A stretch of 64,000 bases of DNA, taken from the IMG/VR virus record IMGVR_UViG_3300035034_003571, positions 67,160 through 131,159 of that record; one strand, 5' to 3'. How positions within the stretch are numbered: position 1 is the stretch's first letter; each line of letters opens with the position of its first letter. The position numbers were made by a program, and so were the translations under genes. Positions 5,967-59,906 of the stretch are shown in pieces. The stretch is from a virus. The notes below the pieces were generated by a model that searched no databases, had not been told where the DNA came from, and was given only the letters and a program-made list of their open reading frames with translations.

Positions 5967-5974
5967 TATATATC
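5967..5974 (-). promoter_or_regulatory. Putative late promoter GATATATA (gp25-like operon)
   Basis: Recurrent octamer about 20-40 nt upstream of structural gene starts. Confidence 0.65.
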
Positions 5975-6034
5975 ACAAGATCCGTGATTGAGAAATTATT
6001 TTATTTATGATATATAGAGAAAATACGGCAAGAT

Positions 6035-7318
6035 ATGAATAATTTATATGATATATTGAGAGAGCTTAAATCTAGAAAAAATCCCCAAGTTGGTCCAGTT
6101 TTAAGGAAGATTAAAAGAGATGAGATAATTATTAAGCATATAAACAAAGAAACTAGATTTCTTGATAGTATATATAAAAATATTTCCATTCAGCAAAGAT
6201 TTTATCACGTATGGTTTAATATAACAAACCCTCCAAAATGTGAGTATTGTGAAGATGTAAAAAAATTCTCACAATACTCTAGATTTTCTATAGATCAAAA
6301 TAAAAAGGATTCAAATTATTATAAATATTGTGGAGGGATTAAATGTATAACCAAAGATTTTATAGAAAGAGGTTGTGGGAATCAAGGGTATGGTGCATTA
6401 ATAGCTAAAATAAAAAATGATCCGAAATTATACGAAGATCTTTGTTCAGAAACAAAATTCTTGGATGTTTTTTATGATGATATATCAAATTCCCAAAGAT
6501 TCTATCACATTTTTTTCGAATCTTACGAAATAGAAAAATGTGAATTTTGTGGAACCCCGAAAAAATTCACATTTAATGATAAATTTTCTACCAATAAAAA
6601 TAAAAGGGATTCAAATTATTGTAAATCATGTAATTCAAAAGAATGTATTTTATTGGCAACTATTAAAGAATCAAAAAAAGGGGTATTTAATAAATATGGG
6701 GTTACGAACATTTGGGAAATTCCAGGATATCGAGAAAAATTAACTAACACGAATTTAATCAAATACGGGAGCGAATATATTATGGGGAGCGAACACTTTA
6801 AAGATAAAGTAAAGGAAACTATAAATATTAAATGGGGAGGTGACCATCCAACTAAACACGAAAAGACTAAGAATAAAAAATACGAAACGAATCTAAAAAA
6901 ATATGGATTTTCCTGCGCATTACAAAATTCACAAATCCAAGAAAAACAACTTAAGTCCTGTTTTAAATCTAAAAAATATAAAATGACATCGGGTAAAATT
7001 GTTTATGTACAAGGATATGAACCATGGGCATTAGATATTTTACTAGCAAAATATCAAGAAAATGATATTATAGTTGATAAAACGGGGATTGAAAAATATA
7101 TAGGGAAGACGAAATATATTAATGAAAATAATAAAACATGCATATATTTCCCAGATATTTATATTAAATCTATTAATGAAATAATCGAAGTGAAATCAGA
7201 ATACACATACCTAATAAACGAAAACGAAAATATTCTCAAGAAAAATGCTATACTCAATAAAGGGATTAAATTTTCTTTTTGGATTTTCGACATTAATAAA
7301 AACCTAAGAATAATTTAA
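6035..7318 (+). mobile_element. Free-standing putative homing endonuclease: Zn-ribbon repeats, KYG repeats and a C-terminal PD-(D/E)XK domain
   Basis: Opposite strand to its neighbours; duplicated QRFYH...CExC unit; KYG repeats; FPDIYIKSINEIIEVKS nuclease motif. Confidence 0.65.
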
Positions 7319-7345: not shown

Positions 7346-8140
7346 TCAATTCCATTGAAGGAAAAAATGCGGAGTATTTTCTCCGTCTATCATATCTTTA
7401 ACCTCCTGAAGTTCATTTTCTCCGTCGGTTCTTAAGTCTGAAGGGTTTACCTGGACCCCGCCAGGAAGATTATAGTTGAACGCACTTAGCATTCTCGCTA
7501 AGTTTATTTTAGCTCTAGCTATAGTATATCTTACGAATAATTCATCGTCATATAATTCATCATCATCCAAAGCAACAAAGCATCTTATAGCTACATCTAC
7601 TCCTCCTGGATCGAAAGCTCCTTTGTTACTTTGTGGACCAGATTCTCCTCCGACTCCACTTCTGTATGGATCCCTACCTAAAATAGTTAGTTTCTTAGAA
7701 TTTTTATTCCATTTATAGGCAAACGTTTCTAGCATATAAGCTCTAGCTAAATCAAAATATGAATACATTACTGTTCTATATACTAAGTTGTCTCCCACGA
7801 AAGGTGACATTAAAAGTTCAGATCCTAGAAGTTTGGAATCTCCGAAATCCTTGTCTGGGTTTCCACTTATTCCAGTTCCATTAACTTCTCTAACGTCATG
7901 AACCGTTATGATTTTAGCTGGAAGTACTATCTGTCTGGTTCTTCTAAATTCTTGATGGTTAAAAACCTCACTAGCAACTACCATTACTCTTTCTTCTACA
8001 GCGTACTGATAATTATCATACATCCATGCTCTAGCTCTTTTTATTATCCTTTTAATTTCAGGTTCTTTTAGATTATAAGGTAAAGAACAGCTATGTGAAA
8101 GATCATCCTGTATTTCTTTTATTAATTCGGCTTCGGTCAT
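7346..8140 (-). CDS. Neck protein (T4 gp13-like)
   Basis: FKWN-like YKWNKNSKKLTILG and C-terminal LPGGVQVN...GENELQE are typical of gp13. Confidence 0.75.
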   Translation of the reverse strand: MTEAELIKEIQDDLSHSCSLPYNLKEPEIKRIIKRARAWMYDNYQYAVEERVMVVASEVFNHQEFRRTRQIVLPAKIITVHDVREVNGTGISGNPDKDFGDSKLLGSELLMSPFVGDNLVYRTVMYSYFDLARAYMLETFAYKWNKNSKKLTILGRDPYRSGVGGESGPQSNKGAFDPGGVDVAIRCFVALDDDELYDDELFVRYTIARAKINLARMLSAFNYNLPGGVQVNPSDLRTDGENELQEVKDMIDGENTPHFFLQWN

Positions 8141-8144
8141 CTAA

Positions 8145-9545
8145 TCAATTATCATTTTTAAAAAAGAAGTCTTTGCTTTTATCGTTCTTATCTTTTAATC
8201 TAGAATCAGTAACAAACCTAGCATTTCTTTTTTCCGACCATCCTTTAACGGTCTCAGTAGTTTCGCTAATTTTAGCATTTTTAGCAGTATTTCCCGCTCT
8301 TAGTACTCCCCCCTCTATATCGCAGTCAATTTTTTTACCTTTAGAATCTATAAAGCAATCTATTAACTTATTAGAAAATTCAACGGAAGTATCTTTTATT
8401 TTACTGTTTTTGATATTGGATCCTCCAGCTACTTCAGAGTCTATAATTTCACTACCCCCAACTTTACAAGAATGAAAAACACAGTTTTTTATAACTGAAT
8501 TTTTAATATCACAATTTATTAGATCAAAACCAGAAATATTAAAAGCGTCTCTTATTTTAGCATCTTTTACTTGGAATCTACCTACACTGGTATCATAGTT
8601 CAAAAATCCTCTTTTTAAATTCCCATCCACTATAAGGTCAAATATTTTATCCCTTATTGTTGTATAGTAGGTTTTTATATTTTCGTCCCCTCCTTTAAGA
8701 TCAACTAATATATGAAAGTCAGGATAGTGAGTAAAAAACCTTTGGGGATTTGAAAAACTACTAACCACGTTTCTATACTCCTTCATCATAGTTTCCAACT
8801 TCGAAACATCATCTCTAGAATAACCAGAAATTCTGCCGCTTAGAATATCATAAATATAAAGACATACATAGTCCATTATTTCCCTGATATCTTTAGATTT
8901 TTTCTGGTAATCAAGCCCTCCTATGTAACGGATTTCAATATAGCCCTTAGAAAGTTTAGAAAAATTTACCCCATAATACTTATCTTCTGGGATTTTAAAT
9001 AACTTCGGATCGATATTTCTTATGTTTTCAACAGAAGAAAATCTATTCCTAGGTATTACTCTTTTTATAGATTTAGCATATACATTATTTGATCTATTTC
9101 CGAATTTTTTATAGATCATTCCTTCATTAAAACCTAAAATAAATTTGAGCCTATCTATATGTTCTATTCTATTTTTTAAATCAGTATCGAATTTATCGAA
9201 GCTTATAGAAAATTGGAAAGAACAAGAATCCGTAGTATACGCATTCTTGTCTATCCATCTTAGCATTTTATAAAATATTGGTATGGCTTCATTATAAGGT
9301 AAAGGTCCCGTTATCAACTCATACATTTTAGATCCTCCTGAATAATCAGGTTCTAATTTAAAGGTATTTCTATCAACCTTCATTTTAGAATGGTACTTAT
9401 CACAAAGCTCTACATTCTTACCAAGAACTTCGGAAATAGATTTCCTCATTTCTCCTTTAAGCATTCCAGAAAAGAATTCGAATTCGAATCCTATAACGGA
9501 AGAGGCTAATGCAGTTGCTTTATCAAAGTGGTTTCTTTTATTCAT
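8145..9545 (-). CDS. Putative amidoligase (COOH-NH2 ligase fold) with a C-terminal beta-helix-like repeat region
   Basis: IGFEFEF, EPDYS, YELITGPL, KYYGVNF and IEIRY motifs; repeated IKNS/IxDS strands at the C-terminus. Confidence 0.7.
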   Translation of the reverse strand: MNKRNHFDKATALASSVIGFEFEFFSGMLKGEMRKSISEVLGKNVELCDKYHSKMKVDRNTFKLEPDYSGGSKMYELITGPLPYNEAIPIFYKMLRWIDKNAYTTDSCSFQFSISFDKFDTDLKNRIEHIDRLKFILGFNEGMIYKKFGNRSNNVYAKSIKRVIPRNRFSSVENIRNIDPKLFKIPEDKYYGVNFSKLSKGYIEIRYIGGLDYQKKSKDIREIMDYVCLYIYDILSGRISGYSRDDVSKLETMMKEYRNVVSSFSNPQRFFTHYPDFHILVDLKGGDENIKTYYTTIRDKIFDLIVDGNLKRGFLNYDTSVGRFQVKDAKIRDAFNISGFDLINCDIKNSVIKNCVFHSCKVGGSEIIDSEVAGGSNIKNSKIKDTSVEFSNKLIDCFIDSKGKKIDCDIEGGVLRAGNTAKNAKISETTETVKGWSEKRNARFVTDSRLKDKNDKSKDFFFKNDN

Positions 9546-10704
9546 CCGATATCATCGCGAAAATTTTTCCTGCTATAGGATCTACCTCATAAATTACTAC
9601 AGTAGTTTCGTCTCCCGTACCCAAATCTGCTGCACTATGACTTAGATTATCATTAGGAACTAAAGCTAATGAACTAATTTCTGGAATTTCTACAAGAACC
9701 CCCGTCTTTTTTTTATGCTTAACTTTAGCGCTAAATTTAGGATTTTTTCCATTGTTTATTTCAGCCTCAAGTTCATACAACCTTAAAGTCTTTTCTAGTG
9801 GTTCAGAAAAGGTTAGAGTTAATCTATTATTATCTCTAACCTCTTTTACATAGAATTCTATTTCGTCACCTGGGCTAAAGCTACTTAGTTCACTAAATCC
9901 ACCCAATTCTGTTTTATGAAGTAATCCAGTATAAATATCTTCCCATTCAACAAAAACTCCAAAACTAGAAGTACCTGTTACTAATCCATGATATTTTTTA
10001 GTAAGATCCAATTCTTGAATTTTATGCTCCATTATTTTTTCAAGATATTTCTTATAAGAAATAATGAAAATATCCTTAGTTGGAATATAACTGTCGACCA
10101 TAACAGGAATCTCTTTTCCTATATAAGCTTCGAAATCGGTTATTTTATTAGCAGCAGCCAAAGATCCTGGAAGGAAACATTTTATTCCAGAAATATTAGC
10201 GATATATCCACCTTTGTTAATAGATTCAACTATAGCAGTATATGCAACTTTTTCCTCCTTTATCTGCATAAATAATTCAACTTTTAGACTATCTAAATAG
10301 TGATCTATGGCTGAACCGAAGTAATCGTCATTAACCTTTCTAACTACTAGAGTAATTCCAGTACCTACAGAAAAATCTAACCCAATTATATTTAATTTCT
10401 TGGCAGCTTTTAATTCTTTATTTAAGTCCACATATACGGTCTGTCCGCTTTTAGTGGAAGCAAAAACTTCTCCATCCAAAACACTATCTACCGTACATCC
10501 ATAGGCTTTCCCCTCGGTTAGATCTTTAGGTTCATATAGTATCCCACTATTGAAATAAGCATCATATATGGCCTTATCCTCTTGATTTAAATTTTTACTA
10601 TTTCTAGATTTTATCCTCTTTCGATAGGTTTTAGCATCTATCGCTGATTCCTCATAAGCTTCCCAATCAAATTCTTGGTCTTCTACTACTTTTTCTTTGT
10701 TCAT
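9538..10704 (-). CDS. Ribosomal protein S1 (bS1)-like multi-S1-domain protein
   Basis: NKGGYIANISGIKCFLPGS and GTSSFGVFVE...GLLHKTEL are S1 repeats; about 4 OB domains; N-terminal EFDWEAYE. Confidence 0.8.
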   Translation of the reverse strand: MNKEKVVEDQEFDWEAYEESAIDAKTYRKRIKSRNSKNLNQEDKAIYDAYFNSGILYEPKDLTEGKAYGCTVDSVLDGEVFASTKSGQTVYVDLNKELKAAKKLNIIGLDFSVGTGITLVVRKVNDDYFGSAIDHYLDSLKVELFMQIKEEKVAYTAIVESINKGGYIANISGIKCFLPGSLAAANKITDFEAYIGKEIPVMVDSYIPTKDIFIISYKKYLEKIMEHKIQELDLTKKYHGLVTGTSSFGVFVEWEDIYTGLLHKTELGGFSELSSFSPGDEIEFYVKEVRDNNRLTLTFSEPLEKTLRLYELEAEINNGKNPKFSAKVKHKKKTGVLVEIPEISSLALVPNDNLSHSAADLGTGDETTVVIYEVDPIAGKIFAMISDE

Positions 10705-10731
10705 TTTTTTAGTTTTAAAACGTGATTATCT

Positions 10732-10739
10732 TATATATC
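10732..10739 (-). promoter_or_regulatory. Putative late promoter GATATATA (S1-amidoligase-neck operon)
   Basis: Same octamer, 28 nt upstream of the ATG. Confidence 0.65.
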
Positions 10740-10769
10740 TCATATAAGATTAATTTAAATCTTTATTTA

Positions 10770-11357
10770 TTATAAAGGAATAGAATCTATCAAAGATGTA
10801 AGATTAGCAATCTGATCAAACAGAAGAAGTAGAGAAGATGGCAAAACGTAAAGAATCTCGTTTGCTGCTTTTAATAAACGGCCGAAAGCTGCGGTAATAG
10901 ATGATAATAATCCAGACAAAGTATTTTTAGAAGTTTTAGTTAAATTTAAAGCGTATACTGGATTGGGTGCAACTGGAGGTGTTCCGATAGCGGGAGGCAA
11001 AAGAATATTTGCTATAATGCTTGTAACGTCAGGTGGAATTCTTTCAACCCCTTCCTTTAATATTTTATATTCCTGTTTAACTATAGATATTTGTTCGGTA
11101 ACTGATTTCTTTAAATTAGCTCTTAAAGTTTCCTCCGCCTCTTCCCTTTTTTCGTTTGCTTCACTAATAGCTTGCTCCTCGTCCATTCCTCTATCTATAT
11201 TCTCTTGAATTTCTTCGCTAACTATAGTATTATAGGATCCGAGTCCAGCACTCTTAGCTACTAAATTATTAGTTACTTGATCTTCATTAAGTCCCGGTAA
11301 ATTTTCGCCCAAATCCCCCAATTTTTTAATCAAATTTTCTTGCTGTTCTATAGACAT
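10770..11357 (-). CDS. Hypothetical protein downstream of the spike gene
   Basis: 195 aa helical ORF coupled to the gp5-like gene. Confidence 0.5.
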   Translation of the reverse strand: MSIEQQENLIKKLGDLGENLPGLNEDQVTNNLVAKSAGLGSYNTIVSEEIQENIDRGMDEEQAISEANEKREEAEETLRANLKKSVTEQISIVKQEYKILKEGVERIPPDVTSIIANILLPPAIGTPPVAPNPVYALNLTKTSKNTLSGLLSSITAAFGRLLKAANEILYVLPSSLLLLFDQIANLTSLIDSIPL

Positions 11358-11358
11358 T

Positions 11359-12018
11359 CTATTTAGTTTTAGTATTTTTACTTAATACTCCAGAGGGTAA
11401 AGGAATAACTGGGGGAGCTCCGGAACTAGGATGAGTATGAGTATCATAGATTCTTTTAAAAGAATCCCCTTTAATAACAGATTCTATTGCTCCTTCTCCT
11501 AATTCTATATTTCTAGAATTCACAATAACTTTCCTTTCCTCCATTCTTATTTCATCGTCTCCCATTTTTACAACAACTCTAAGATCTCCCCCGTCTCTAG
11601 TATCCAATTGAATTTTTGCATTATCTAATTCTAAAAGTAAACCATCTCTTTTTGTATATAAGATTTTCAATGGTCCGGGTTCTGACTCTGTATCATATAA
11701 TAAAACATGAGATCCCTCATATGAATCCCTTATTTCGTCTAACATTACTTGGGAATATGAATGGATAAATTCATAATAGATATTATAGTAATTATCTCCA
11801 TCCATATCTATTCCCACTACCGCACCTACTCTAGGAATGGATATGGTTCCAGATGCATTTCCTCCGGCGAAAATAATACCACCAGCTTGATCCGCCCACG
11901 GAAGATCTTCGTCTTCTATATCATCAAAAAGACCGAAAACTCTTATTTTAGCTCTCGCCTGGTATAGAGGATCTTTGTTGTCCACTATAATTCCATATCT
12001 AGTCTTTCCTTCCGGCAT
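11359..12018 (-). CDS. Baseplate central spike (gp5/gpV OB-fold) with no lysozyme domain
   Basis: GIIVDNKDPLYQARAKIRVFG...DLPWA...IPRVG OB-fold; C-terminal HTH (HxH) apex motif. Confidence 0.85.
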   Translation of the reverse strand: MPEGKTRYGIIVDNKDPLYQARAKIRVFGLFDDIEDEDLPWADQAGGIIFAGGNASGTISIPRVGAVVGIDMDGDNYYNIYYEFIHSYSQVMLDEIRDSYEGSHVLLYDTESEPGPLKILYTKRDGLLLELDNAKIQLDTRDGGDLRVVVKMGDDEIRMEERKVIVNSRNIELGEGAIESVIKGDSFKRIYDTHTHPSSGAPPVIPLPSGVLSKNTKTK

Positions 12019-12020
12019 TA

Positions 12021-14990
12021 CTATTCGTTATATTTTTCGTCTTTAGGATGATTGTCTCCCAAACTAAGATCGTATTTAGTATGAGGTTTAGCATTAGGAA
12101 TATCTTTAACTTCTTTTTCTTTAGTATCGTTAAAATCTCCATTAGTTATAGGATATACATTACCTAAGGTTTCTTTTCCATTAGCCATTTTCTGTTCTCC
12201 GTAAACATTATCTGATGGACCTTCGTAAGATCTCCCATCTATTACGTTAGAATTTGGCCTTTTAACTCCTAAATCAGAACCCGGAGAATTAGGATAAACG
12301 TCTCCTTCTGGCCCTATATAATCCCTTCTAGGTACACCTAAATCAGCTCCAGGAGAATCAGGATAAACGTCTTCACTTAAAGTTTTATTTTCTGGAAGAG
12401 TCGGAGTATTATAAACATTTTCGGGGGAATTTAAATTATTATTACTTTCAACATCTCCATATATGTCCTCTTTAAATTTTGGATAAACTCTATCAGGTAC
12501 TCCTAAATCAGCTCCAGGTGAGGTAGGATAAACATCTCCGTTAGGTTTTGGATAAGCTCTATCAGGTACTCCTAAATCAGCTCCAGGTGAGGTAGGATAA
12601 ACATCTCTATCACCATCAGGTTTTAGGTAAGTTCTCTCCGTCCCTCCCAAATCAGCTCCAGGTGAGGTAGGATAAACATCTCTATCACCACCTGGTTTTA
12701 GGTAAGTCCTACCCGCACCTCCTAAATCAGCTCCAGGTGAATCTGGATAAACGTCTCCGTTAGGTTTTGGATAAGCTCTATCAGGTACTCCTAAATCAGC
12801 TCCTGGGGAATCTGGGTAAACGTCTCCGTTAGGTTTTGGATAAGCTCTATCAGGTACTCCTAAATCAGCTCCTGGGGAATCTGGGTAAACGTCTCCGTTA
12901 GGTTTTGGATAAGCTCTATCAGGTACTCCCAGATCAGGCCCGGGTGACGTAGGATATAAATCGTCGTTGACACCAGGATAAACTCTATCAGGTAAACCTA
13001 AATCAGGTCCTGGTGAAGTAGGATATAAATCGTCGTTGACACCAGGATAAACTCTATCAGGTACACCTAAATCTGGTCCTGGTGAATCTGGATATACATC
13101 ATCATTAACTCCAGGATAAACCCTATCAGGTACACCTAAATCTACTCCTGGTGAATCTGGATAAAAATCGCCTTCTGGTTGTGGATAAACTCTATCAGGA
13201 ACCCCCAAATCTACTCCCGGGGAATCTGGATAAACGTCGTCATCAACTCCAGGATAAACTCTATCAGGAACCCCCAAATCTACTCCCGGGGAATCTGGAT
13301 ATACATCATCATTAACTCCAGGATAAACTCTATCAGGAACCCCTAAATCTACTCCCGGGGAATCTGGATAGACATCTCCTTCTGGTTGTGGATAAACTCT
13401 ATCAGGAACTCCCAAATCAGATCCGGGTGAATCTGGGTATGAATCACCCTCTGGTTGAGTATAAATTCTATCTGGTGGACCTCCAAATCCGCTTTCTTGT
13501 GGATCAGATCCAGAGAAATAAGCATTATCACCCTCCAATACATCTTGGGATGTTGAGAAGTTGTATACATTTTCAAATATTTGTACTGGTTGTCCGGAAG
13601 CTTGAGAGGTTAAATTAGCTACCCCCTCTGTAATCATATCTCCTATAGCACCTGAAACAAAATTAGTAAGTAAATCCTGTCCAGCTCCAAGTAAATCCCC
13701 TACTATACCTTCACCAAGTTTTGGAAATTTTTGAACCGAGGATCTGTTGGATTCCCAGCCATCAGACAGAACTAAGGGTAATCCATCTAATCTAATATTT
13801 GGATATTGGTTTTTAACCTTTACTCTTCCGACATGAACTCTAAATGCTTGCGTAGCTTGCTCTGCGGAGGTAGTACCCACATCTAAACTACTTTCTATAG
13901 GATAACTATCATCAAAATCAAATTCACATTGGCTACACTCATACATCATAACTGGCTTGATCCCTGCTTGATCCGATTGAGCCGCTAATACGTCATATTC
14001 TGTTTGTATTCCTGACTGCTGGGTCAAATTACCAACAAAACTGTTAAACGACCCTCCTGGAGAAGAACCCCCTGGATATATTTTATTTATTCCGCCCTGA
14101 ATTTTATTTAAAGCATTAGTAGTTCCTGGGTTCATATTTGATCCAAGATATGCACTAAGGTCATCTACCGCTTTAACCGCTGCTGCACTCCCTAAAAGTC
14201 TGGCAGTTTTATTTAGGTTTCTTATTTCAGAAACGAAAATAAACATCTTAAAATATTTGAGGTTCTTAGGTAAAAGCTCTCTCATATACTCAGCATCAAA
14301 CGTAGAAATCCTATATAAATCAGCTAAAGCCGACATTCTAAGATTCATAGACTCCAGACAATTAAAAGTTAAAACTTTATTAGCCGTTCTTTGAGCATTA
14401 AACGTATCAGTGAATTCTGAATTATAATCAGATCTTGCTACTGAACTTAATTCATCTAATCCCTCTATCGACTGGAAAAACCAGGGTGAATTTTTATTTA
14501 TATTTTGAAGCAATGTTTTAAATTGCTTAAGCATATCAGATCTTTTACCCCCTCCTCTTCCAAAATTTAGAGTATCCGCAAGCCCACCTAATTTGTTTCT
14601 ATCAACATTAAAAAAATCTAAACCTCTATCTAATATTACACCTTCTCTAATACCCCCAATACCGTCACTTAATGTAGATGACTGATTAAAATCAAATTCT
14701 CTTTCCTCTAGGTAACCTTGTGCAGAATAATAAGCTATACTGGAGTCAGATGGAAAATGATCATATTCTAGTTGTCCGAAAGGATTTTGAGCAAAAAAAC
14801 TATTAGTATCTCCAGTGTAATTAGTATCCTTAAATAGAGGGCTTGGAGGTTGTCCGTATGAATCTACCGGAAGTCCTCCAAAATCAAAAACTATTTTAAA
14901 TCCTAAATAAGTTGGATCCTCATAATTTCCTTGTGTAGAAAGGTTAAACCCTTTCATAAATAAACTTCTATCTTTAGCTGTTGCTCCCAT
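12021..14990 (-). CDS. Large tail/baseplate-associated protein with a 23-aa tandem repeat domain
   Basis: 989 aa; globular N-terminus (EDPTYLGFKIVFDF, PWFFQSIEGL) followed by YPxSPGxDLGVPDRxYP repeats; located in the baseplate operon. Confidence 0.6.
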   Translation of the reverse strand: MGATAKDRSLFMKGFNLSTQGNYEDPTYLGFKIVFDFGGLPVDSYGQPPSPLFKDTNYTGDTNSFFAQNPFGQLEYDHFPSDSSIAYYSAQGYLEEREFDFNQSSTLSDGIGGIREGVILDRGLDFFNVDRNKLGGLADTLNFGRGGGKRSDMLKQFKTLLQNINKNSPWFFQSIEGLDELSSVARSDYNSEFTDTFNAQRTANKVLTFNCLESMNLRMSALADLYRISTFDAEYMRELLPKNLKYFKMFIFVSEIRNLNKTARLLGSAAAVKAVDDLSAYLGSNMNPGTTNALNKIQGGINKIYPGGSSPGGSFNSFVGNLTQQSGIQTEYDVLAAQSDQAGIKPVMMYECSQCEFDFDDSYPIESSLDVGTTSAEQATQAFRVHVGRVKVKNQYPNIRLDGLPLVLSDGWESNRSSVQKFPKLGEGIVGDLLGAGQDLLTNFVSGAIGDMITEGVANLTSQASGQPVQIFENVYNFSTSQDVLEGDNAYFSGSDPQESGFGGPPDRIYTQPEGDSYPDSPGSDLGVPDRVYPQPEGDVYPDSPGVDLGVPDRVYPGVNDDVYPDSPGVDLGVPDRVYPGVDDDVYPDSPGVDLGVPDRVYPQPEGDFYPDSPGVDLGVPDRVYPGVNDDVYPDSPGPDLGVPDRVYPGVNDDLYPTSPGPDLGLPDRVYPGVNDDLYPTSPGPDLGVPDRAYPKPNGDVYPDSPGADLGVPDRAYPKPNGDVYPDSPGADLGVPDRAYPKPNGDVYPDSPGADLGGAGRTYLKPGGDRDVYPTSPGADLGGTERTYLKPDGDRDVYPTSPGADLGVPDRAYPKPNGDVYPTSPGADLGVPDRVYPKFKEDIYGDVESNNNLNSPENVYNTPTLPENKTLSEDVYPDSPGADLGVPRRDYIGPEGDVYPNSPGSDLGVKRPNSNVIDGRSYEGPSDNVYGEQKMANGKETLGNVYPITNGDFNDTKEKEVKDIPNAKPHTKYDLSLGDNHPKDEKYNE
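12262..13475 (-). repeat. Coding tandem repeat, 69-bp (23-aa) unit, about 16 copies
   Basis: 14 contiguous SPG-containing units plus 2 after a gap; two units are 75 bp. End points are approximate. Confidence 0.9.
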
Positions 14991-43693: not shown

Positions 43694-43740
43694 GGTAATT
43701 ATTTATTTCATTATAGATATATATACTCAAAAGGTTTCTT

Positions 43741-44583
43741 ATGAAAGATTATTACGTATATGTTTATTTAGATCCAAACGATCCTGGGGATTTTGAATAT
43801 GGTGATTTAAGATTTACTTTTAAACCTTTCTATATAGGGAAGGGGACTAAAGATAGATGCTATAGTGGGATAAGAGATAAGGGAAGATTCTATAAGGTTA
43901 GTAAAATAAAATCTATATTAAAAACCAATAAATTTCCTATTATAACTAAAATTTATGAAAATATTAGTAACCAAGAGGCTATGGAAATTGAGAAATCTTC
44001 GATAAAGTTAATAGGTAGGAATGATTTGGGCCTTGGGCCTCTCACTAATATGACAGATGGTGGAGATGGTGGACCTGGATATTTACACAAAGAAGCATGG
44101 AAAAAAATTCTTTCCAAACCAGTTATCCAATATGACAAGAAAATGAACCCGCTAAATGAATTCAATTCCATAAAAGAAGCAGCAGAAACACTTGGTATAT
44201 TTAGCCAAAATATTTCTTCAGCTTTAAATAAAAAACAAAAAACCGCTGGGGGATTTATCTGGGCGTATAAAAATCCAGAGGATTTTTTACAGGGCCATCT
44301 AAAAACAAAATCCAAAATGCCCAGCCACTCAGAGGAAACAAAAGATAAGATGAAGAAATCTGCTAAGAGAGGGGAAGATCATCCCATGAGCAATAAAACA
44401 GGGAAAGATCATCCAAGGGCTAGATCCATAAGACAAGAAACACTTACTGGAGATTTAATTAAAACCTGGGGATCTTTTCAAGACATTAAAAGGGCTCTTG
44501 GTTTTTCTCCATCTAATATATGTAGATGTTGTAAAGGAGAAGTTAAAAGAATTGGGGGTTTTAATTGGGAATATGTAAATTAA
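43741..44583 (+). mobile_element. GIY-YIG homing endonuclease with NUMOD1/NUMOD3-like DNA-binding modules
   Basis: YYVYVY...PFYIGKG..R; NMTDGGDG; HSEETKDKM; two FxSxxEAA/AGGFxW repeats; opposite strand. Confidence 0.85.
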
Positions 44584-48050: not shown

Positions 48051-49664
48051 TTATAAAGTAAAGTTACTTTCTCCTCCTGATTCTTCTGCTCCCTCTTCTC
48101 CTGATCCTTCAGCTTCTTTTTTCTTTTCGAAGATCTTTTTTATTTTTTCCTTATACCTAGAATTGGCTTCTATTTCGTCTGGAGTTAATCCAAGGAATCT
48201 TTGTACTAAAAAATTTGGATCGAAATAAGCCTCTTCCTCTTCCCCAACTTTTTCAGAAAGAGTAGATAGAGTAGATATGAAAGAAGCTCTTTTAGCAAGA
48301 TGTCCGAGTTTAATTTTTAAATCAAACTCGCTCTCTTTTACGAAATTTATACCTAGATTAGATTTAAAAGATTGATCCGATGCCAAATCTGGGTAATCTA
48401 AACACATCTGAATGTATAGAGGTTTTATTAAAATCTCTTGGAAATTAGATCTCAATCTATTCAGGAATTTATCAAACCTCATTTCATCCCTTTCCATCTG
48501 ATCTATATTTATTTGATGGTTAGATGGGGTTCCTCCTTTAGCAGCAAATCTAGCATAAGGAATTTTAGAATCTTGTTTTAGTTTATTGAAAAAATACGTA
48601 ACAGTTTCCATGACATTAAAATCAGGGCCGTTTGGATTCAGAGATTCTATCTGTGGACTTTCCCCATTTTTTTCAGGAAACATATAATTTTTATAAAACT
48701 GTACTTTTGGTCTTCCGTTAATTGTTAATTCTCCACTGCTATCATCTAGGTCTATTTCTTCCTTGTAATTGGACATTAATTGGCCCAGTGTTTGAAGCGC
48801 TTTTTGTTGAGATTGAGTACCAACAGGAATAATAAATTTAAGTCTATATGAAGCGTTCATTACGTTCCATATAACCCTAGTATTTTCCATTATTCTTAAT
48901 ATATTATAGGATCTAACTAATCTTTCGATATAGCTAACCCTAGATATAGCATTACCTTTTGCATAAGAAAGATATATTACCTGCTCGTCTTTAAGCTTTC
49001 TAGTTAAATTTGCATTCCCTGGGTATTGTATCCAAAACTGTTCAAATTTATCAGGTCCAACTTTTTCTACTGTAGGTTGCAAAGAAATTGCATCAAGTTC
49101 TTTAAATCCGACTATATTTTTCCCAGTGTTATCGTAAACTATTTCTAAAGCCAAAAAACCGTCTATAAGAAATTGCTTCATGTATTGCCAACCTAAATTT
49201 GAATTAGTAAAGCCAAAAAGTGAATATATTTTTCGAAAGTTTTCGAAAACCTTATCTCTAACCTTATCTTTTAAATCCAGATTTACCATTTCTGGGTAAG
49301 CAAAAAAGTTTTTGGAATCTTGGACTATAGCTTCGTCCGACATAGTATCTAATATGAATTCAATCTCACCATTTAAAGAAAATTTTCTAAGAAAATCCCT
49401 TTTTCCTCCATAATCTTTATCAAAATATGCTATATATTTTCTTACTCTAGTATCTTGTAAAGCTGAAGTCCATCTGAAAGCATCAGAAACTGTAGCTCCG
49501 ACCCCTTCTGAGTTAACAAAACCAGATTCGGTCTTCCCTATAGACTGGGAATTCCTTATTATCATATCTTGATACTTCATACCGAACCTTGAAACCTTAC
49601 TAAGGTTTCTAAATAGGGTAGTCAAAGATTGTCCGCTTCTAATATTATCTAAAAATCCTGCCAT
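48051..49664 (-). CDS. Portal protein (T4 gp20-like), copy 2
   Basis: FLIDG, SYIERLVRSYNILRIME, SKIPYARF and RDEMRFDKFLNRLR. Confidence 0.9.
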   Translation of the reverse strand: MAGFLDNIRSGQSLTTLFRNLSKVSRFGMKYQDMIIRNSQSIGKTESGFVNSEGVGATVSDAFRWTSALQDTRVRKYIAYFDKDYGGKRDFLRKFSLNGEIEFILDTMSDEAIVQDSKNFFAYPEMVNLDLKDKVRDKVFENFRKIYSLFGFTNSNLGWQYMKQFLIDGFLALEIVYDNTGKNIVGFKELDAISLQPTVEKVGPDKFEQFWIQYPGNANLTRKLKDEQVIYLSYAKGNAISRVSYIERLVRSYNILRIMENTRVIWNVMNASYRLKFIIPVGTQSQQKALQTLGQLMSNYKEEIDLDDSSGELTINGRPKVQFYKNYMFPEKNGESPQIESLNPNGPDFNVMETVTYFFNKLKQDSKIPYARFAAKGGTPSNHQINIDQMERDEMRFDKFLNRLRSNFQEILIKPLYIQMCLDYPDLASDQSFKSNLGINFVKESEFDLKIKLGHLAKRASFISTLSTLSEKVGEEEEAYFDPNFLVQRFLGLTPDEIEANSRYKEKIKKIFEKKKEAEGSGEEGAEESGGESNFTL

Positions 49665-51253
49665 TATTTATCTTCTTTATTATCACCTTCTTCATCACCC
49701 CTTTCGTCTTCTTCATCCTTCTTTTTCTTTTCATCAGCAGCTCTTTTCTTAGCTTCTTCATTGGACTTTATATCTTCATTATTTAAGCCCAGATATTTTT
49801 CTATTAAATATCCAGTAGAAAAGAAGGGTTCATTTTCAGAAATGTTTATTTCCATTAATCCATTAATTGATTCCAATTTATTATTCATGGTTTCAATTTC
49901 CTGATTTACCCTAAATGGATTATCAGAAAAATATTGTAAACCCAATTGACTTTTAAATTGATAGTCAGTTGCAAGAGCTGGGATTTCTTTACACATCTGA
50001 ATCCATATGGGCTTTATCAAAATGCTTTGGAAATTAGATCTCAATCTATTTATAAATTTATCAAATCTAATTTCTTCTCTATCCATCCCATCAGCACCAT
50101 CAGAATAATTCCCCTGTGTTCCACCTTCAGGTCCTTGGAATCTGGAAGAAGGAACTTTAGATTCCTGAATTAGTTTATCATAAAAATATGCTAAAGGTTG
50201 CATATCATTAAGGTCTGGCCCCGCAGTATCCAAAGGTTCTATACTAGGAGTACCATTTACTCCCGAAGGAATCAGATAATTCTTATAGAATTGTATTTTA
50301 GGTCTCCCGTCCATCGTTAGCTCCCCGCTTTCGTCATTGAATTTAATATCTTCCTTATAGATACTCATTAATTCTCCCAAAGTTTGCATAGATTTTTGAG
50401 GAGACTTAGTACCTATAGGAACAGTCATTTTCATTCTAAATGAAGAATTCATAACAGACCATATGATCCTAGTATATTCAATAATTCTTAGTACGTTATA
50501 TGGTCTTATTAGTCTCTCTGCATAACTTACTCTGGAAATAGAATTTCCCTTCGCATAAGAAATATAGATTATTTGAGAATCATAAAGGGTTCTTCTTTTT
50601 CTTTCGTCGTCGGGATACTGTATCCAGATAGGAATGAACGAGCCATCTTTCTGTTCTTCCACACTTGGTAAAATACTACTAGAATTAAGTTCTTTAAAAC
50701 CTATAATTTTTTTCCCGTCGTCATCATAAATAATTTCGAATGCAAGTACTCCCTCTATTATTAATTGGCGGAAAAAATGCCAAGCAGTACCATCCTCATT
50801 AAATCCCCACAGAGAATAAATACTCTTGAATACTTTATCTAATTTATCTTTAACCTTTTCATTAGCATTTGAAAGATTCAAAAAGTTAGGAGTAGCAAAA
50901 AAATTGGAGGGGTCAGTATTGATTGCTTCGTCGCAAACTAAATCTAATATAAATTCAATCTCAGGATTTAACGAAAATTTCCTAAGGTAGTCTTTCTTTC
51001 CCTCATATCCCTTATCAAAATAGGTAACATATTCTCTAGTGGTTGTATCCTGTCTACCTAAAGAATATAATAAAGCTTCATCGCTTATAGGACCATTTTG
51101 TAGAAAAACAGCTTCAGTGGCACCTACTGCCTGAGAATTCTTAATGACTAAGTCATTATATCTCATACCAAAAGTACTTAATCCCTTAACAGAATCTTTT
51201 ATTCTATTAAATAGATTATTACTACTAGGTTCATTATCTAAAAATCCCGCCAT
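49664..51253 (-). CDS. Portal protein (T4 gp20-like), copy 1
   Basis: SYAERLIRPYNVLRIIE, SKVPSSRF and REEIRFDKFINRLR. Confidence 0.9.
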   Translation of the reverse strand: MAGFLDNEPSSNNLFNRIKDSVKGLSTFGMRYNDLVIKNSQAVGATEAVFLQNGPISDEALLYSLGRQDTTTREYVTYFDKGYEGKKDYLRKFSLNPEIEFILDLVCDEAINTDPSNFFATPNFLNLSNANEKVKDKLDKVFKSIYSLWGFNEDGTAWHFFRQLIIEGVLAFEIIYDDDGKKIIGFKELNSSSILPSVEEQKDGSFIPIWIQYPDDERKRRTLYDSQIIYISYAKGNSISRVSYAERLIRPYNVLRIIEYTRIIWSVMNSSFRMKMTVPIGTKSPQKSMQTLGELMSIYKEDIKFNDESGELTMDGRPKIQFYKNYLIPSGVNGTPSIEPLDTAGPDLNDMQPLAYFYDKLIQESKVPSSRFQGPEGGTQGNYSDGADGMDREEIRFDKFINRLRSNFQSILIKPIWIQMCKEIPALATDYQFKSQLGLQYFSDNPFRVNQEIETMNNKLESINGLMEINISENEPFFSTGYLIEKYLGLNNEDIKSNEEAKKRAADEKKKKDEEDERGDEEGDNKEDK

Positions 51254-52378: not shown

Positions 52379-52735
52379 CTATATATTATAATTTCCAGAA
52401 TCTCCTGTTATATGGCTAAATGGAATAGTGTTAGGGCTTTTTGGTGGATGTATTTTTTTCCATCCTTTAGCAAATCCGTTTTTACCTATTTGAGTAAAAT
52501 AAGCGAATGGGTTATTAGATTTTTCCGGATTGAATCTATTCCAATATTTTATAAGGTCCTCCATAGCTGAAGCCATGCAATCGTTTCTATCGTCTGGATT
52601 TTTATAAGCCATTCTTTTTGCTATACCCTCTATCATTAAGGTAAACATATCAATCATTTCTCGAGTAAGTTCTCCAGCTTCTTTAGATTCTTTAAATGCT
52701 CTCATTAAATCTACATTTCTAACATAATTAGCCAT
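52379..52735 (-). CDS. Late-transcription sigma factor (T4 gp55-like)
   Basis: NYVRN..L and FNPEKSNNPFAYFTQI. Confidence 0.85.
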   Translation of the reverse strand: MANYVRNVDLMRAFKESKEAGELTREMIDMFTLMIEGIAKRMAYKNPDDRNDCMASAMEDLIKYWNRFNPEKSNNPFAYFTQIGKNGFAKGWKKIHPPKSPNTIPFSHITGDSGNYNI

Positions 52736-59309: not shown

Positions 59310-59906
59310 TTATATGGACTTAGGGGATTCCATTTTTTTCCTAATCTTATTTCTAGCTCTTCTAATTCTGGTAGCTATGGAACGTTTCTTAATGTCATAT
59401 TTCTCCGCAATGTCCTTATATTTCATTTTATTTATCTCTCGGTCTACCATAATGTCTTTATATAAAGGTGGAAGGTTTTTGATTTCTTCTATTATTTCAT
59501 CATAGATTTCATCTATCGAATCCTCGTCATCAGCAAAAGACCATAATGGATCTTTTTCTGCTGGAAGATTCTTCATACTAGCAGCAGCGATAAATTCAAC
59601 ATCACTCTCCGTTTTACTCTTATATTTTTTTCTTTCCTTTATTATTAGTAATGACTCGTTTTTAGCTATATTATAGCACCAAGTAGAAAAGTTACCCCGA
59701 TCTATATTATATTGGTCCACTTTTTGCCAAATTTTAGTCATACAATTAAGAAACGCATCTTCAGCTAATCCTTTATCTTTTAGTATACCATAACAATGAT
59801 TTAGTATTCCCGGTCTTAATCTTTCATATAAGGTTTTAAAGTTTTTATCTGTTTTTTCTTCTATAAAATTGGTCGCAATTATTTGAATGTCTTTTTCCTT
59901 AATCAT
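59310..59906 (-). CDS. ECF-type sigma-70 factor
   Basis: Region 2 (LAEDAF...FSTWCYNIAKN) and region 4 HTH (MKYKDIAEKY...SIATRIRRAR). Confidence 0.9.
   Translation of the reverse strand: MIKEKDIQIIATNFIEEKTDKNFKTLYERLRPGILNHCYGILKDKGLAEDAFLNCMTKIWQKVDQYNIDRGNFSTWCYNIAKNESLLIIKERKKYKSKTESDVEFIAAASMKNLPAEKDPLWSFADDEDSIDEIYDEIIEEIKNLPPLYKDIMVDREINKMKYKDIAEKYDIKKRSIATRIRRARNKIRKKMESPKSI

Follow-up and report, generated by a model that had tools for sequence, protein, structure and literature searches.

Bacteroidota initiate translation without Shine-Dalgarno (SD) pairing, and the part played by ribosomal protein S1 (bS1) in this process is still being worked out. Bacteroidia ribosomes do without SD pairing, and in F. 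johnsoniae bS1 gives about 2-fold more initiation on an SD-less mRNA (PMC9976891). In E. coli, the N-terminal segment of S1, with Phe5 and Phe9 stacked on uS2, is needed for ribosome binding (PMC4288201). Proteins of this family are also encoded by phages. Al-Shayeb et al. (2020) listed S1 among the ribosomal proteins that huge phages encode, noted proteins carrying as many as six S1 domains, observed that genomes with a possible rpS1 rarely carry SD sequences, put forward the idea that this protein redirects translation, and left its role open as 'on or off the ribosome' (PMC7162821). Mizuno et al. (2019) treated S1-domain proteins as ambiguous and left them out of account (PMC6375957), and a 2026 paper describes bS1 in cyanophage PhiMa05 (PMC13157829). 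The existence of phage rpS1 and its tie to SD-less genomes are already published, and current views of them are unchanged by the present work. Here, we describe an S1 homologue encoded in a stretch of 64,000 nucleotides (nt) of viral DNA (the window; positions 67,160 to 131,159 of IMG/VR record IMGVR_UViG_3300035034_003571), where its gene is joined to genes for a predicted amidoligase-like enzyme and a neck-like protein.

The three genes follow one another on the minus strand, and their lengths are given in amino acids (aa):

9538-10704, minus strand: S1 homologue, 388 aa (open reading frame, ORF)
8145-9545, minus strand: ligase-like protein, 466 aa (ORF)
7346-8140, minus strand: neck or head-tail adaptor-like protein (Ad2, gp13-like), 264 aa (ORF)
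9538-9545, minus strand: overlap of the S1 stop and the ligase start, 8 nt, ATGAATAA (sequence)
10732-10739, minus strand (read from 10739 to 10732): promoter-like motif GATATATA (sequence)

An earlier reading of the DNA from its letters alone (the sequence-only reading) had noted that the S1 gene follows a sequence motif, overlaps the ligase gene and is linked through it, across 4 nt, to the gp13-like gene. The motif lies where it had been placed, the overlap measures 8 nt, and a gap of 4 nt separates the ligase stop from the neck start. No terminator-like hairpin was found from the S1 start up to the final 40 nt of the neck ORF. Given the overlap, the short gap, the terminator-free span and the upstream motif, the S1, ligase and neck genes are best read as a single transcription unit with its own promoter within a baseplate/neck module. 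The ligase gene is translationally coupled to the S1 gene. Read-through from upstream genes may add to transcription of the unit.

The S1 homologue consists of an N-terminal segment and four OB domains, numbered below as in bS1 (D1 to D6):

10525-10704, minus strand: N-terminal segment, aa 1-60, with an FDW motif (F12, W14) and a predicted helix at 41-51
10312-10506, minus strand: OB domain 1, aa 67-131, equivalent to bS1 D1 (model, profile)
10057-10242, minus strand: OB domain 2, aa 155-216, with the bS1 D2 hallmark GIKCFLPGS (model, alignment)
9811-9996, minus strand: OB domain 3, aa 237-298, canonical S1 RNA-binding domain (PF00575, model, profile)
9550-9738, minus strand: OB domain 4, aa 323-385, degenerate S1 domain (weak Pfam match, bS1 D4 alignment, model)

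This protein is a true but divergent bS1 homologue, trimmed to the N-terminal segment and D1-D4. The assignment is based on profile colinearity, on the alignment of the FDW motif and helix, and on the four-domain model. A profile built from 33 family members aligns end to end with residues 17-344 of E. coli bS1, from D1 to D4 (E 1e-38), and in hhalign the family matches Bacteroidota bS1 from the FDW motif to D4 (probability 99.9%, E 3e-32, 341 columns). The non-canonical D1 and D2 of bS1 are kept, in the order D1-D2-D3-D4, and the protein stops after D4, with D5-D6 missing. Both the '~4-domain' architecture and the shortening had been suggested by the sequence-only reading and are borne out by these comparisons and by an AlphaFold2 model (predicted local distance difference test, pLDDT, 77.6), which contains four OB domains and whose top Foldseek matches are ribosome-bound bS1 (9gut_B, E 1e-20). 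Pfam S1 scores 57.1 bits, with one significant domain (PF00575, residues 238-295).

The N-terminal segment aligns with the part of Bacteroidota bS1 that holds the FDW motif and the pre-D1 helix, and model confidence is low in this region. F12, W14 and residues preceding D1 are conserved at 90% or more across the 33 members of the phage family. As read by eye from the hhalign alignment, I46 and Y50 of the window protein correspond in position to E. coli F5 and F9, where Bacteroidota have L and Y. The C-terminus varies across the family; because it is not conserved, its candidacy as a Pup-like or RimK-type substrate was dropped. Three PDB entries titled 'Ribosomal protein S1 homologue' (28jw, 28lu and 9tvu) come from a Chlamydomonas chlororibosome and were rejected as irrelevant to the phage S1 structure.

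Translation starts in the phage are A/U-rich and lack SD sequences, as had been stated before: an SD-like 4-mer occurs at -20 to -5 in 6 of 63 genes, and the 20 nt ahead of starts contain 51% A and 9.5% G, versus 37% and 19% for the coding strand as a whole. SD-less, A-rich leaders are the pattern of Bacteroidia.

GATATATA is a real, recurrent promoter-like element, present beyond chance. It begins 35 nt from the S1 ATG, counted from the first base of the motif. The window contains 16 copies versus 8.43 +/- 2.50 in shuffled sequence, a number that 0 of 100 shuffles attained. Of these copies, 13 sit 25-65 nt 5' of a same-strand ORF start (13 of 65 starts examined). The motif is common to structural genes; those preceded by it include the gp25-like, prohead protease and portal genes. 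Conservation of the element was assessed in relatives of the S1 gene at 43 IMG/VR loci, 29 of which were used for upstream comparison and gave 28 distinct regions; the remaining 14 either duplicated another locus almost exactly or were truncated by a contig end. The pattern [GT]ATATA[TA]A occurs within 90 nt 5' of the S1 gene in 27 of the 28 distinct regions, including those of L043 and L045, where S1 identity to the window protein is only 29-33%. It is positioned 34-56 nt ahead of the S1 ATG, except in L044, where the match lies at -16 and may be unrelated. The single miss is L014, whose start codon was called within the gene.

Two further features bear on how this element is read:

5967-5974, minus strand: next GATATATA motif, ahead of the gp25-like gene, at the start of the following unit
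52379-52735, minus strand: gp55-like late sigma factor (phrog_234, E 4e-14)

In T4, late transcription uses the sigma factor gp55 and the promoter TATAAATA. With GATATATA and a gp55-like gene both present, the element looks like a T4-type late promoter, and the start site and late timing predicted for the unit would follow from this resemblance.

The second gene is predicted to encode an ATP-dependent carboxylate-amine ligase of glutamine-synthetase (GS) fold, fused to a pentapeptide-like beta-helix:

8646-9533, minus strand: GS-fold amidoligase domain, approximately aa 5-300 (model, fold match)
8286-8609, minus strand: pentapeptide-repeat-like beta-helix, aa 313-420 (model strands, weak matches)

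Pfam Amidoligase_2 (PF12224) covers residues 18-167 of the ORF with 21.8 bits, against a cut-off of 22, and scores 22.9 bits on the open frame. Among 27 family members, 13 match Amidoligase_2 at E <= 0.01 (best 5.9e-7). The AlphaFold2 model (pLDDT 84.3; predicted template modelling score, pTM, 0.78) has two parts. Residues 6-240 superpose on glutamine synthetase 4bax_A in VIA-align (Z 11.2, root-mean-square deviation 3.5 A over 187 residues), Foldseek also matches the model to glutamine synthetase (probability 1.00, E 1.8e-5), and many phage models named 'Amidoligase enzyme' in BFVD are structural neighbours. Putative catalytic residues, proposed by alignment, are conserved in ligases linked to S1 (E21/E23, H52, E65/D67, E76, E141, R151 and E204-x-R206); E21, E204 and R206 are replaced in the ligases of loci L050 and L051. 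The family comprises 1235 clusters, all unnamed.

In the C-terminal part of the ligase model, short strands recur approximately every 5 residues over 340-384. Foldseek matches of this part are to MfpA/Qnr (MfpA probability 0.82), profile matches to pentapeptide proteins in PDB are weak (E 0.002-0.03), and Pentapeptide_4 is found in 6 of the 27 family members. Assignment of the beta-helix as a type III effector or 'secreted effector protein' was considered and discarded, the matches being weak and judged to be driven by the repeats. Longer, fused forms of the ligase were sought and none was found, which is weak evidence.

The third gene appears to encode a neck or adaptor protein. Residues 3-252 match PHROG 211, 'head-tail adaptor Ad2' (E 4e-9); Pfam and PDB sequence searches with this protein gave no match. 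Homologues occur in six huge phages, in Lak phages and in two Chryseobacterium jumbo phages, and the distant homologue in Chryseobacterium phage MA9V-2, approximately 20% identical, is annotated 'neck protein'.

The sequence-only reading had also made the significance of the S1-ligase linkage depend on its conservation in relatives. The linkage is conserved within the clade and proves separable in other phages. The ligase gene is next to S1 in 42 of the 43 loci. Its start lies within the S1 gene in 40 of these 42, the overlap measuring 8 to 53 nt; the four overlaps of 53 nt may stem from start calls, and the two most distant loci have a gap of approximately 100 nt. The neck gene follows the ligase gene at -14 to +17 nt in 41 of 42 loci, and in the remaining one the contig ends first. 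In huge phage LR756500, the gp5-like, S1, ligase and neck genes still follow one another in this order, interrupted by insertions. The S1 gene of L044 has dehydrogenase and ribonucleotide reductase genes as neighbours, and a ligase gene is missing within 6 kb.

In more distant phages, the two genes are separated. L050 and L051 carry the ligase gene beside gp6-like, terminase and tail-fibre genes, and no S1 gene was found nearby. LR756502, LR745206 and LR756504 have it near baseplate/neck genes, with no S1 gene within the 8-kb flanks; the distance from S1 to ligase exceeds 200 kb in LR756502 and LR745206 and is approximately 40 kb in LR756504. Since the ligase gene stands beside structural genes in these distant phages, with S1 elsewhere or undetected nearby, the steadier tie is that of the ligase with the structural module, which the S1 gene appears to have joined in one clade, and a dedicated S1-ligase partnership is not supported. 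L050 also has, separated from its ligase gene by one intervening gene, a gene for a collagen-like tail-fibre protein longer than 1591 aa (8494-13266, plus strand).

The S1 family comprises 446 clusters at E <= 1e-5, and the 120 among the matches listed are 348-398 aa long. Several clusters carry the source label 'ribosomal protein S1' and come from contigs of up to 434 kb; no PHROG family matched the S1 homologue or the ligase. Homologues were detected with tblastn in LR756500-LR756504, LR745206 and Lak phages, and the genomes deposited by Al-Shayeb et al. contain homologues of the window S1. The word 'amidoligase' is absent from the main text of that paper (PMC7162821), to which this check was confined. 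Phage-type S1 genes of 352-393 aa were also seen in four genome contigs of 8 to 360 kb (L053-L056), binned in metagenome-assembled genomes titled Saprospirales, Wujia, Alphaproteobacteria and Bacilli. These are probably jumbo-phage contigs inside bins, and the labels are no evidence of host. Three of the four have the motif H-E-P-Y-A, and L056 has H-E-S-Y-A.

Cellular bS1 was sampled as 75 loci fetched from genome contigs by a scan that was seeded with two peptide patterns and is biased in that respect. A [DE]-F-[DN]-W-[DE] motif stands approximately 135 residues ahead of the D2 hallmark GIECFLPGS in cellular bS1, and the phage FDW motif stands 161 residues ahead of GIKCFLPGS. F-x-W is present in 47 of these 75 loci, which are labelled Bacteroidota with 2 exceptions; it was found in 0 of 8 loci from Ignavibacteria, Zixibacteria, Marinimicrobia and Acidobacteria, nor was it found in L123 and L127, which are not labelled Bacteroidota. 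In a quick, unrooted maximum-likelihood tree, all 16 phage rows fall outside the 26 cellular rows, on a branch of 4.56, which suggests one old phage family. Placing the phage group within any phylum failed, the branches being long and the tree unrooted.

We consider it on balance probable that the locus is a late unit in which the phage S1 docks on the host 30S subunit to serve A-rich, SD-less leaders, and the ligase acts on a virion or assembly substrate. GATATATA would presumably be read with the gp55-like late sigma factor and would drive S1, ligase and neck together, late in infection. By homology, the phage S1 would dock at the bS1/uS2 site of the host 30S through its N-terminal segment and D1-D2, and D3, perhaps with D4, would hold the A-rich, SD-less leaders of phage mRNAs. 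In this way, initiation may be kept up or biased during mass production of structural proteins. The ligase substrate would more probably be a component of the virion or its assembly, or a small molecule of that stage, than S1 itself, because the ligase gene stays with structural genes where S1 is not nearby.

Several observations weigh against this proposal. Both protein families are known from sequences and models alone. The S1 homologue is not an orthodox bS1, since it falls short of the rpsA equivalog cut-off: all NCBIfam rpsA models match it and all score far under their cut-offs (TIGR00717, 71.8 versus 577 bits). Residues 1-42 of the model have pLDDT below 50, and the window protein lacks two near-invariant residues (Y-A) just ahead of the helix. 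As read from the alignment, D4 in the close family lacks the usual aromatic/His RNA-binding residues. Some of the 43 loci are almost identical, so that they do not count as independent cases, and the overlap of S1 stop and ligase start in most of them would also fit a functional pair. The ligase of LR756501 has no recognisable structural neighbour within 8 kb. The tree leaves a Bacteroidota origin of the phage S1 not demonstrated and does not reveal the donor.

An unlikely alternative is that S1 and ligase form a dedicated pair. RimK adds amino acids to bS6, and in a RimK-like manner the ligase would modify phage S1, host bS1 or another ribosomal component, so that ribosomes are switched to late messages. 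The frequent S1-ligase overlap agrees with this, as does an order kept at 29-33% S1 identity and in LR756500, and the putative catalytic residues are kept precisely in the S1-linked clade and lost in L050 and L051, with no S1 nearby. However, in four other distant lineages the ligase gene lies by structural genes, with S1 not nearby, and the S1 gene of L044 has no ligase. In addition, ligase relatives outnumber those of S1 (1235 versus 446 matches), the unconserved S1 C-terminus offers no obvious tag-like acceptor or donor, and no fused S1-ligase form was found (weak evidence). The suggestion of the sequence-only reading that the ligase modifies S1 or the ribosome is weakened by the ligases without nearby S1 in distant phages, by the solitary S1 of L044 and by the unconserved C-terminus.

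It is rather unlikely that the S1 homologue acts off the ribosome, as an RNA chaperone, a protector of late mRNA or a cofactor of a phage enzyme. Host S1 is a cofactor for T4 RegB and for Q-beta replicase. D3 is a canonical S1 RNA-binding domain, and host S1 D1-D2 are also bound by Q-beta replicase (PDB 4q7j and 4r71 are among the matches). Nevertheless, strong conservation of the non-RNA-binding D1-D2, together with the FDW motif and helix at the N-terminus, finds its simplest account in docking at the bS1 site, and the genes adjoining S1 showed no RegB-like or replicase-like partner. A role 'on or off the ribosome' is allowed for by Al-Shayeb et al. (PMC7162821).

We regard as very doubtful a two-part ribosome-remodelling module, in which a truncated S1 would replace host bS1 on the 30S late in infection and a ligase targeted by its beta-helix would add amino acids to the phage S1 or a neighbouring ribosomal protein, locking ribosomes on structural messages. 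Finally, beta-helices are common in tail proteins and the genes lie, in conserved order, between the baseplate hub (gp5-like OB) gene and the neck, gp25-like and gp6-like genes, but we find it highly improbable that S1 and ligase are virion or assembly components in or packaged with the baseplate/neck, with S1 perhaps delivered with the DNA, as S1 is colinear with bS1 over the N-terminal segment and four domains, which is more than an OB fold, and the S1 gene of L044 stands among dehydrogenase and ribonucleotide reductase genes.

By gene content, the record belongs to a T4-like jumbo phage, sampled from lake water, and covers part of its genome. The window is the second half of the 131,159-base record, for which CheckV gives approximately 47% completeness; the full genome is estimated at approximately 280 kb. 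GC content of the window is approximately 32%, and the sequencing runs that contain this DNA are lake-water metagenomes, with no RNA run listed among them. The T4-like genes encode a gp23-like major capsid protein, prohead protease, portal, head-closure and clamp-loader proteins, as well as gp25-like, gp6-like, gp5-like OB and gp55-like late sigma factor proteins. The host is probably a member of Bacteroidota; named phages with S1 and neck homologues infect Prevotella and Chryseobacterium. A search of a phage collection turned up no cultured relative. No tRNA genes or bS21 were found in the 131-kb record, which is a fragment, so that absence means little. A second sigma-factor-like gene lies at 59310-59906 on the minus strand (phrog_1740, E 1.5e-23). 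Tandem portal paralogues are encoded at 48051-49664 and 49664-51253 on the minus strand (both phrog_213, E 3e-55 and 1e-58); they share 48% identity over 510 residues, and two portal genes in one phage are unusual.

The genes located 5' of the S1 gene encode an unknown protein of 195 aa, the gp5-like OB protein and a repeat-rich protein of 989 aa:

11359-12018: gp5-like OB gene (baseplate hub)

The gene for the 989-aa protein (12021-14990, minus strand) adjoins the gp5-like gene and contains a tandem array of 69-nt (23-aa) units at 12477-13436, with 13.7 copies and local GC of up to 0.41; judged from multiple tblastn segments, the copy number varies across relatives. The neck gene is followed 3' by a plus-strand DUF7487 homing endonuclease gene and then by the gp25-like and gp6-like baseplate genes. 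The endonuclease gene (6035-7318), on the strand opposite to the neck and gp25-like genes between which it lies, is bracketed by divergent GATATATA motifs at 5967-5974 (minus) and 6009-6016 (plus). Among the loci with readable output, L034 and L041 are the only ones with a DUF7487 homologue at this site. A second plus-strand HNH/homing endonuclease gene (43741-44583) has its own GATATATA motif at 43716-43723.

The features named in the sequence-only reading are thus real, their interpretation is supported in part, and the locus is for the most part ordinary. The conserved S1-ligase-neck arrangement is a modest new detail, and the coupling is unexplained. In literature searches that excluded supplementary files, we found no description of trimming to D1-D4 with a retained Bacteroidota-type N-terminal segment, of the conserved promoter, of the fixed place in the baseplate/neck module, or of S1 coupled to a GS-fold ligase-beta-helix fusion; neither the S1-ligase pairing nor a ligase-pentapeptide fusion was found reported in phages. 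The phage bS1 family, with at least 446 clusters, offers natural variants in which the parts of bS1 responsible for mRNA selection can be sought, with members trimmed to D1-D4 that keep the host-type N-terminal segment. The ligase-beta-helix family, with at least 1235 clusters, represents widespread uncharacterised predicted enzymes whose genes go with the jumbo-phage tail/neck module. The conserved motif and gene order provide concrete constructs for such tests.

Compared with known systems, the phage S1 resembles bS1 (rpsA) in its Bacteroidota form in the colinear arrangement of the N-terminal segment and D1-D2-D3-D4, in the retained FDW motif and pre-D1 helix, and in the shared D2 hallmark G-I-K/E-C-F-L-P-G-S. 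It differs in length (388 aa versus approximately 590-690), in the loss of D5, D6 and the C-terminal tail, and in approximately 25 extra residues between FDW and D2; identity is approximately 24%. It belongs to the same protein family as the huge-phage rpS1, with the same tie to absent SD sequences (PMC7162821), but here the phage is of approximately 280 kb (estimated), and S1 is located inside a structural module, behind a conserved motif and coupled to a ligase.

The ligase shares its predicted fold with Amidoligase_2 and the GS, gamma-GCS and YbdK ligases, with a borderline Pfam score, and its family keeps ExE, further acidic residues, His and ExR as putative catalytic residues; unlike GS-fold ligases, it has a fused C-terminal beta-helix, a fixed place in the baseplate/neck module and a distant subgroup without ExR. 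The predicted quadrilateral beta-helix at residues 313-420 is similar to the pentapeptide-repeat proteins MfpA, Qnr and McbG, with weak sequence and fold matches, whereas it is part of a ligase rather than a stand-alone DNA mimic and its repeats are degenerate. The neck protein is similar to T4 gp13/Ad2 head-tail adaptors in its PHROG 211 match and in a gene that adjoins baseplate genes, and unlike them it matched no solved structure by sequence. As in T4 late transcription, a single A/T-rich 8-mer lies close 5' of late or structural genes in a phage with a gp55-like gene; the consensus is GATATATA in this phage, in contrast to the T4 late promoter.

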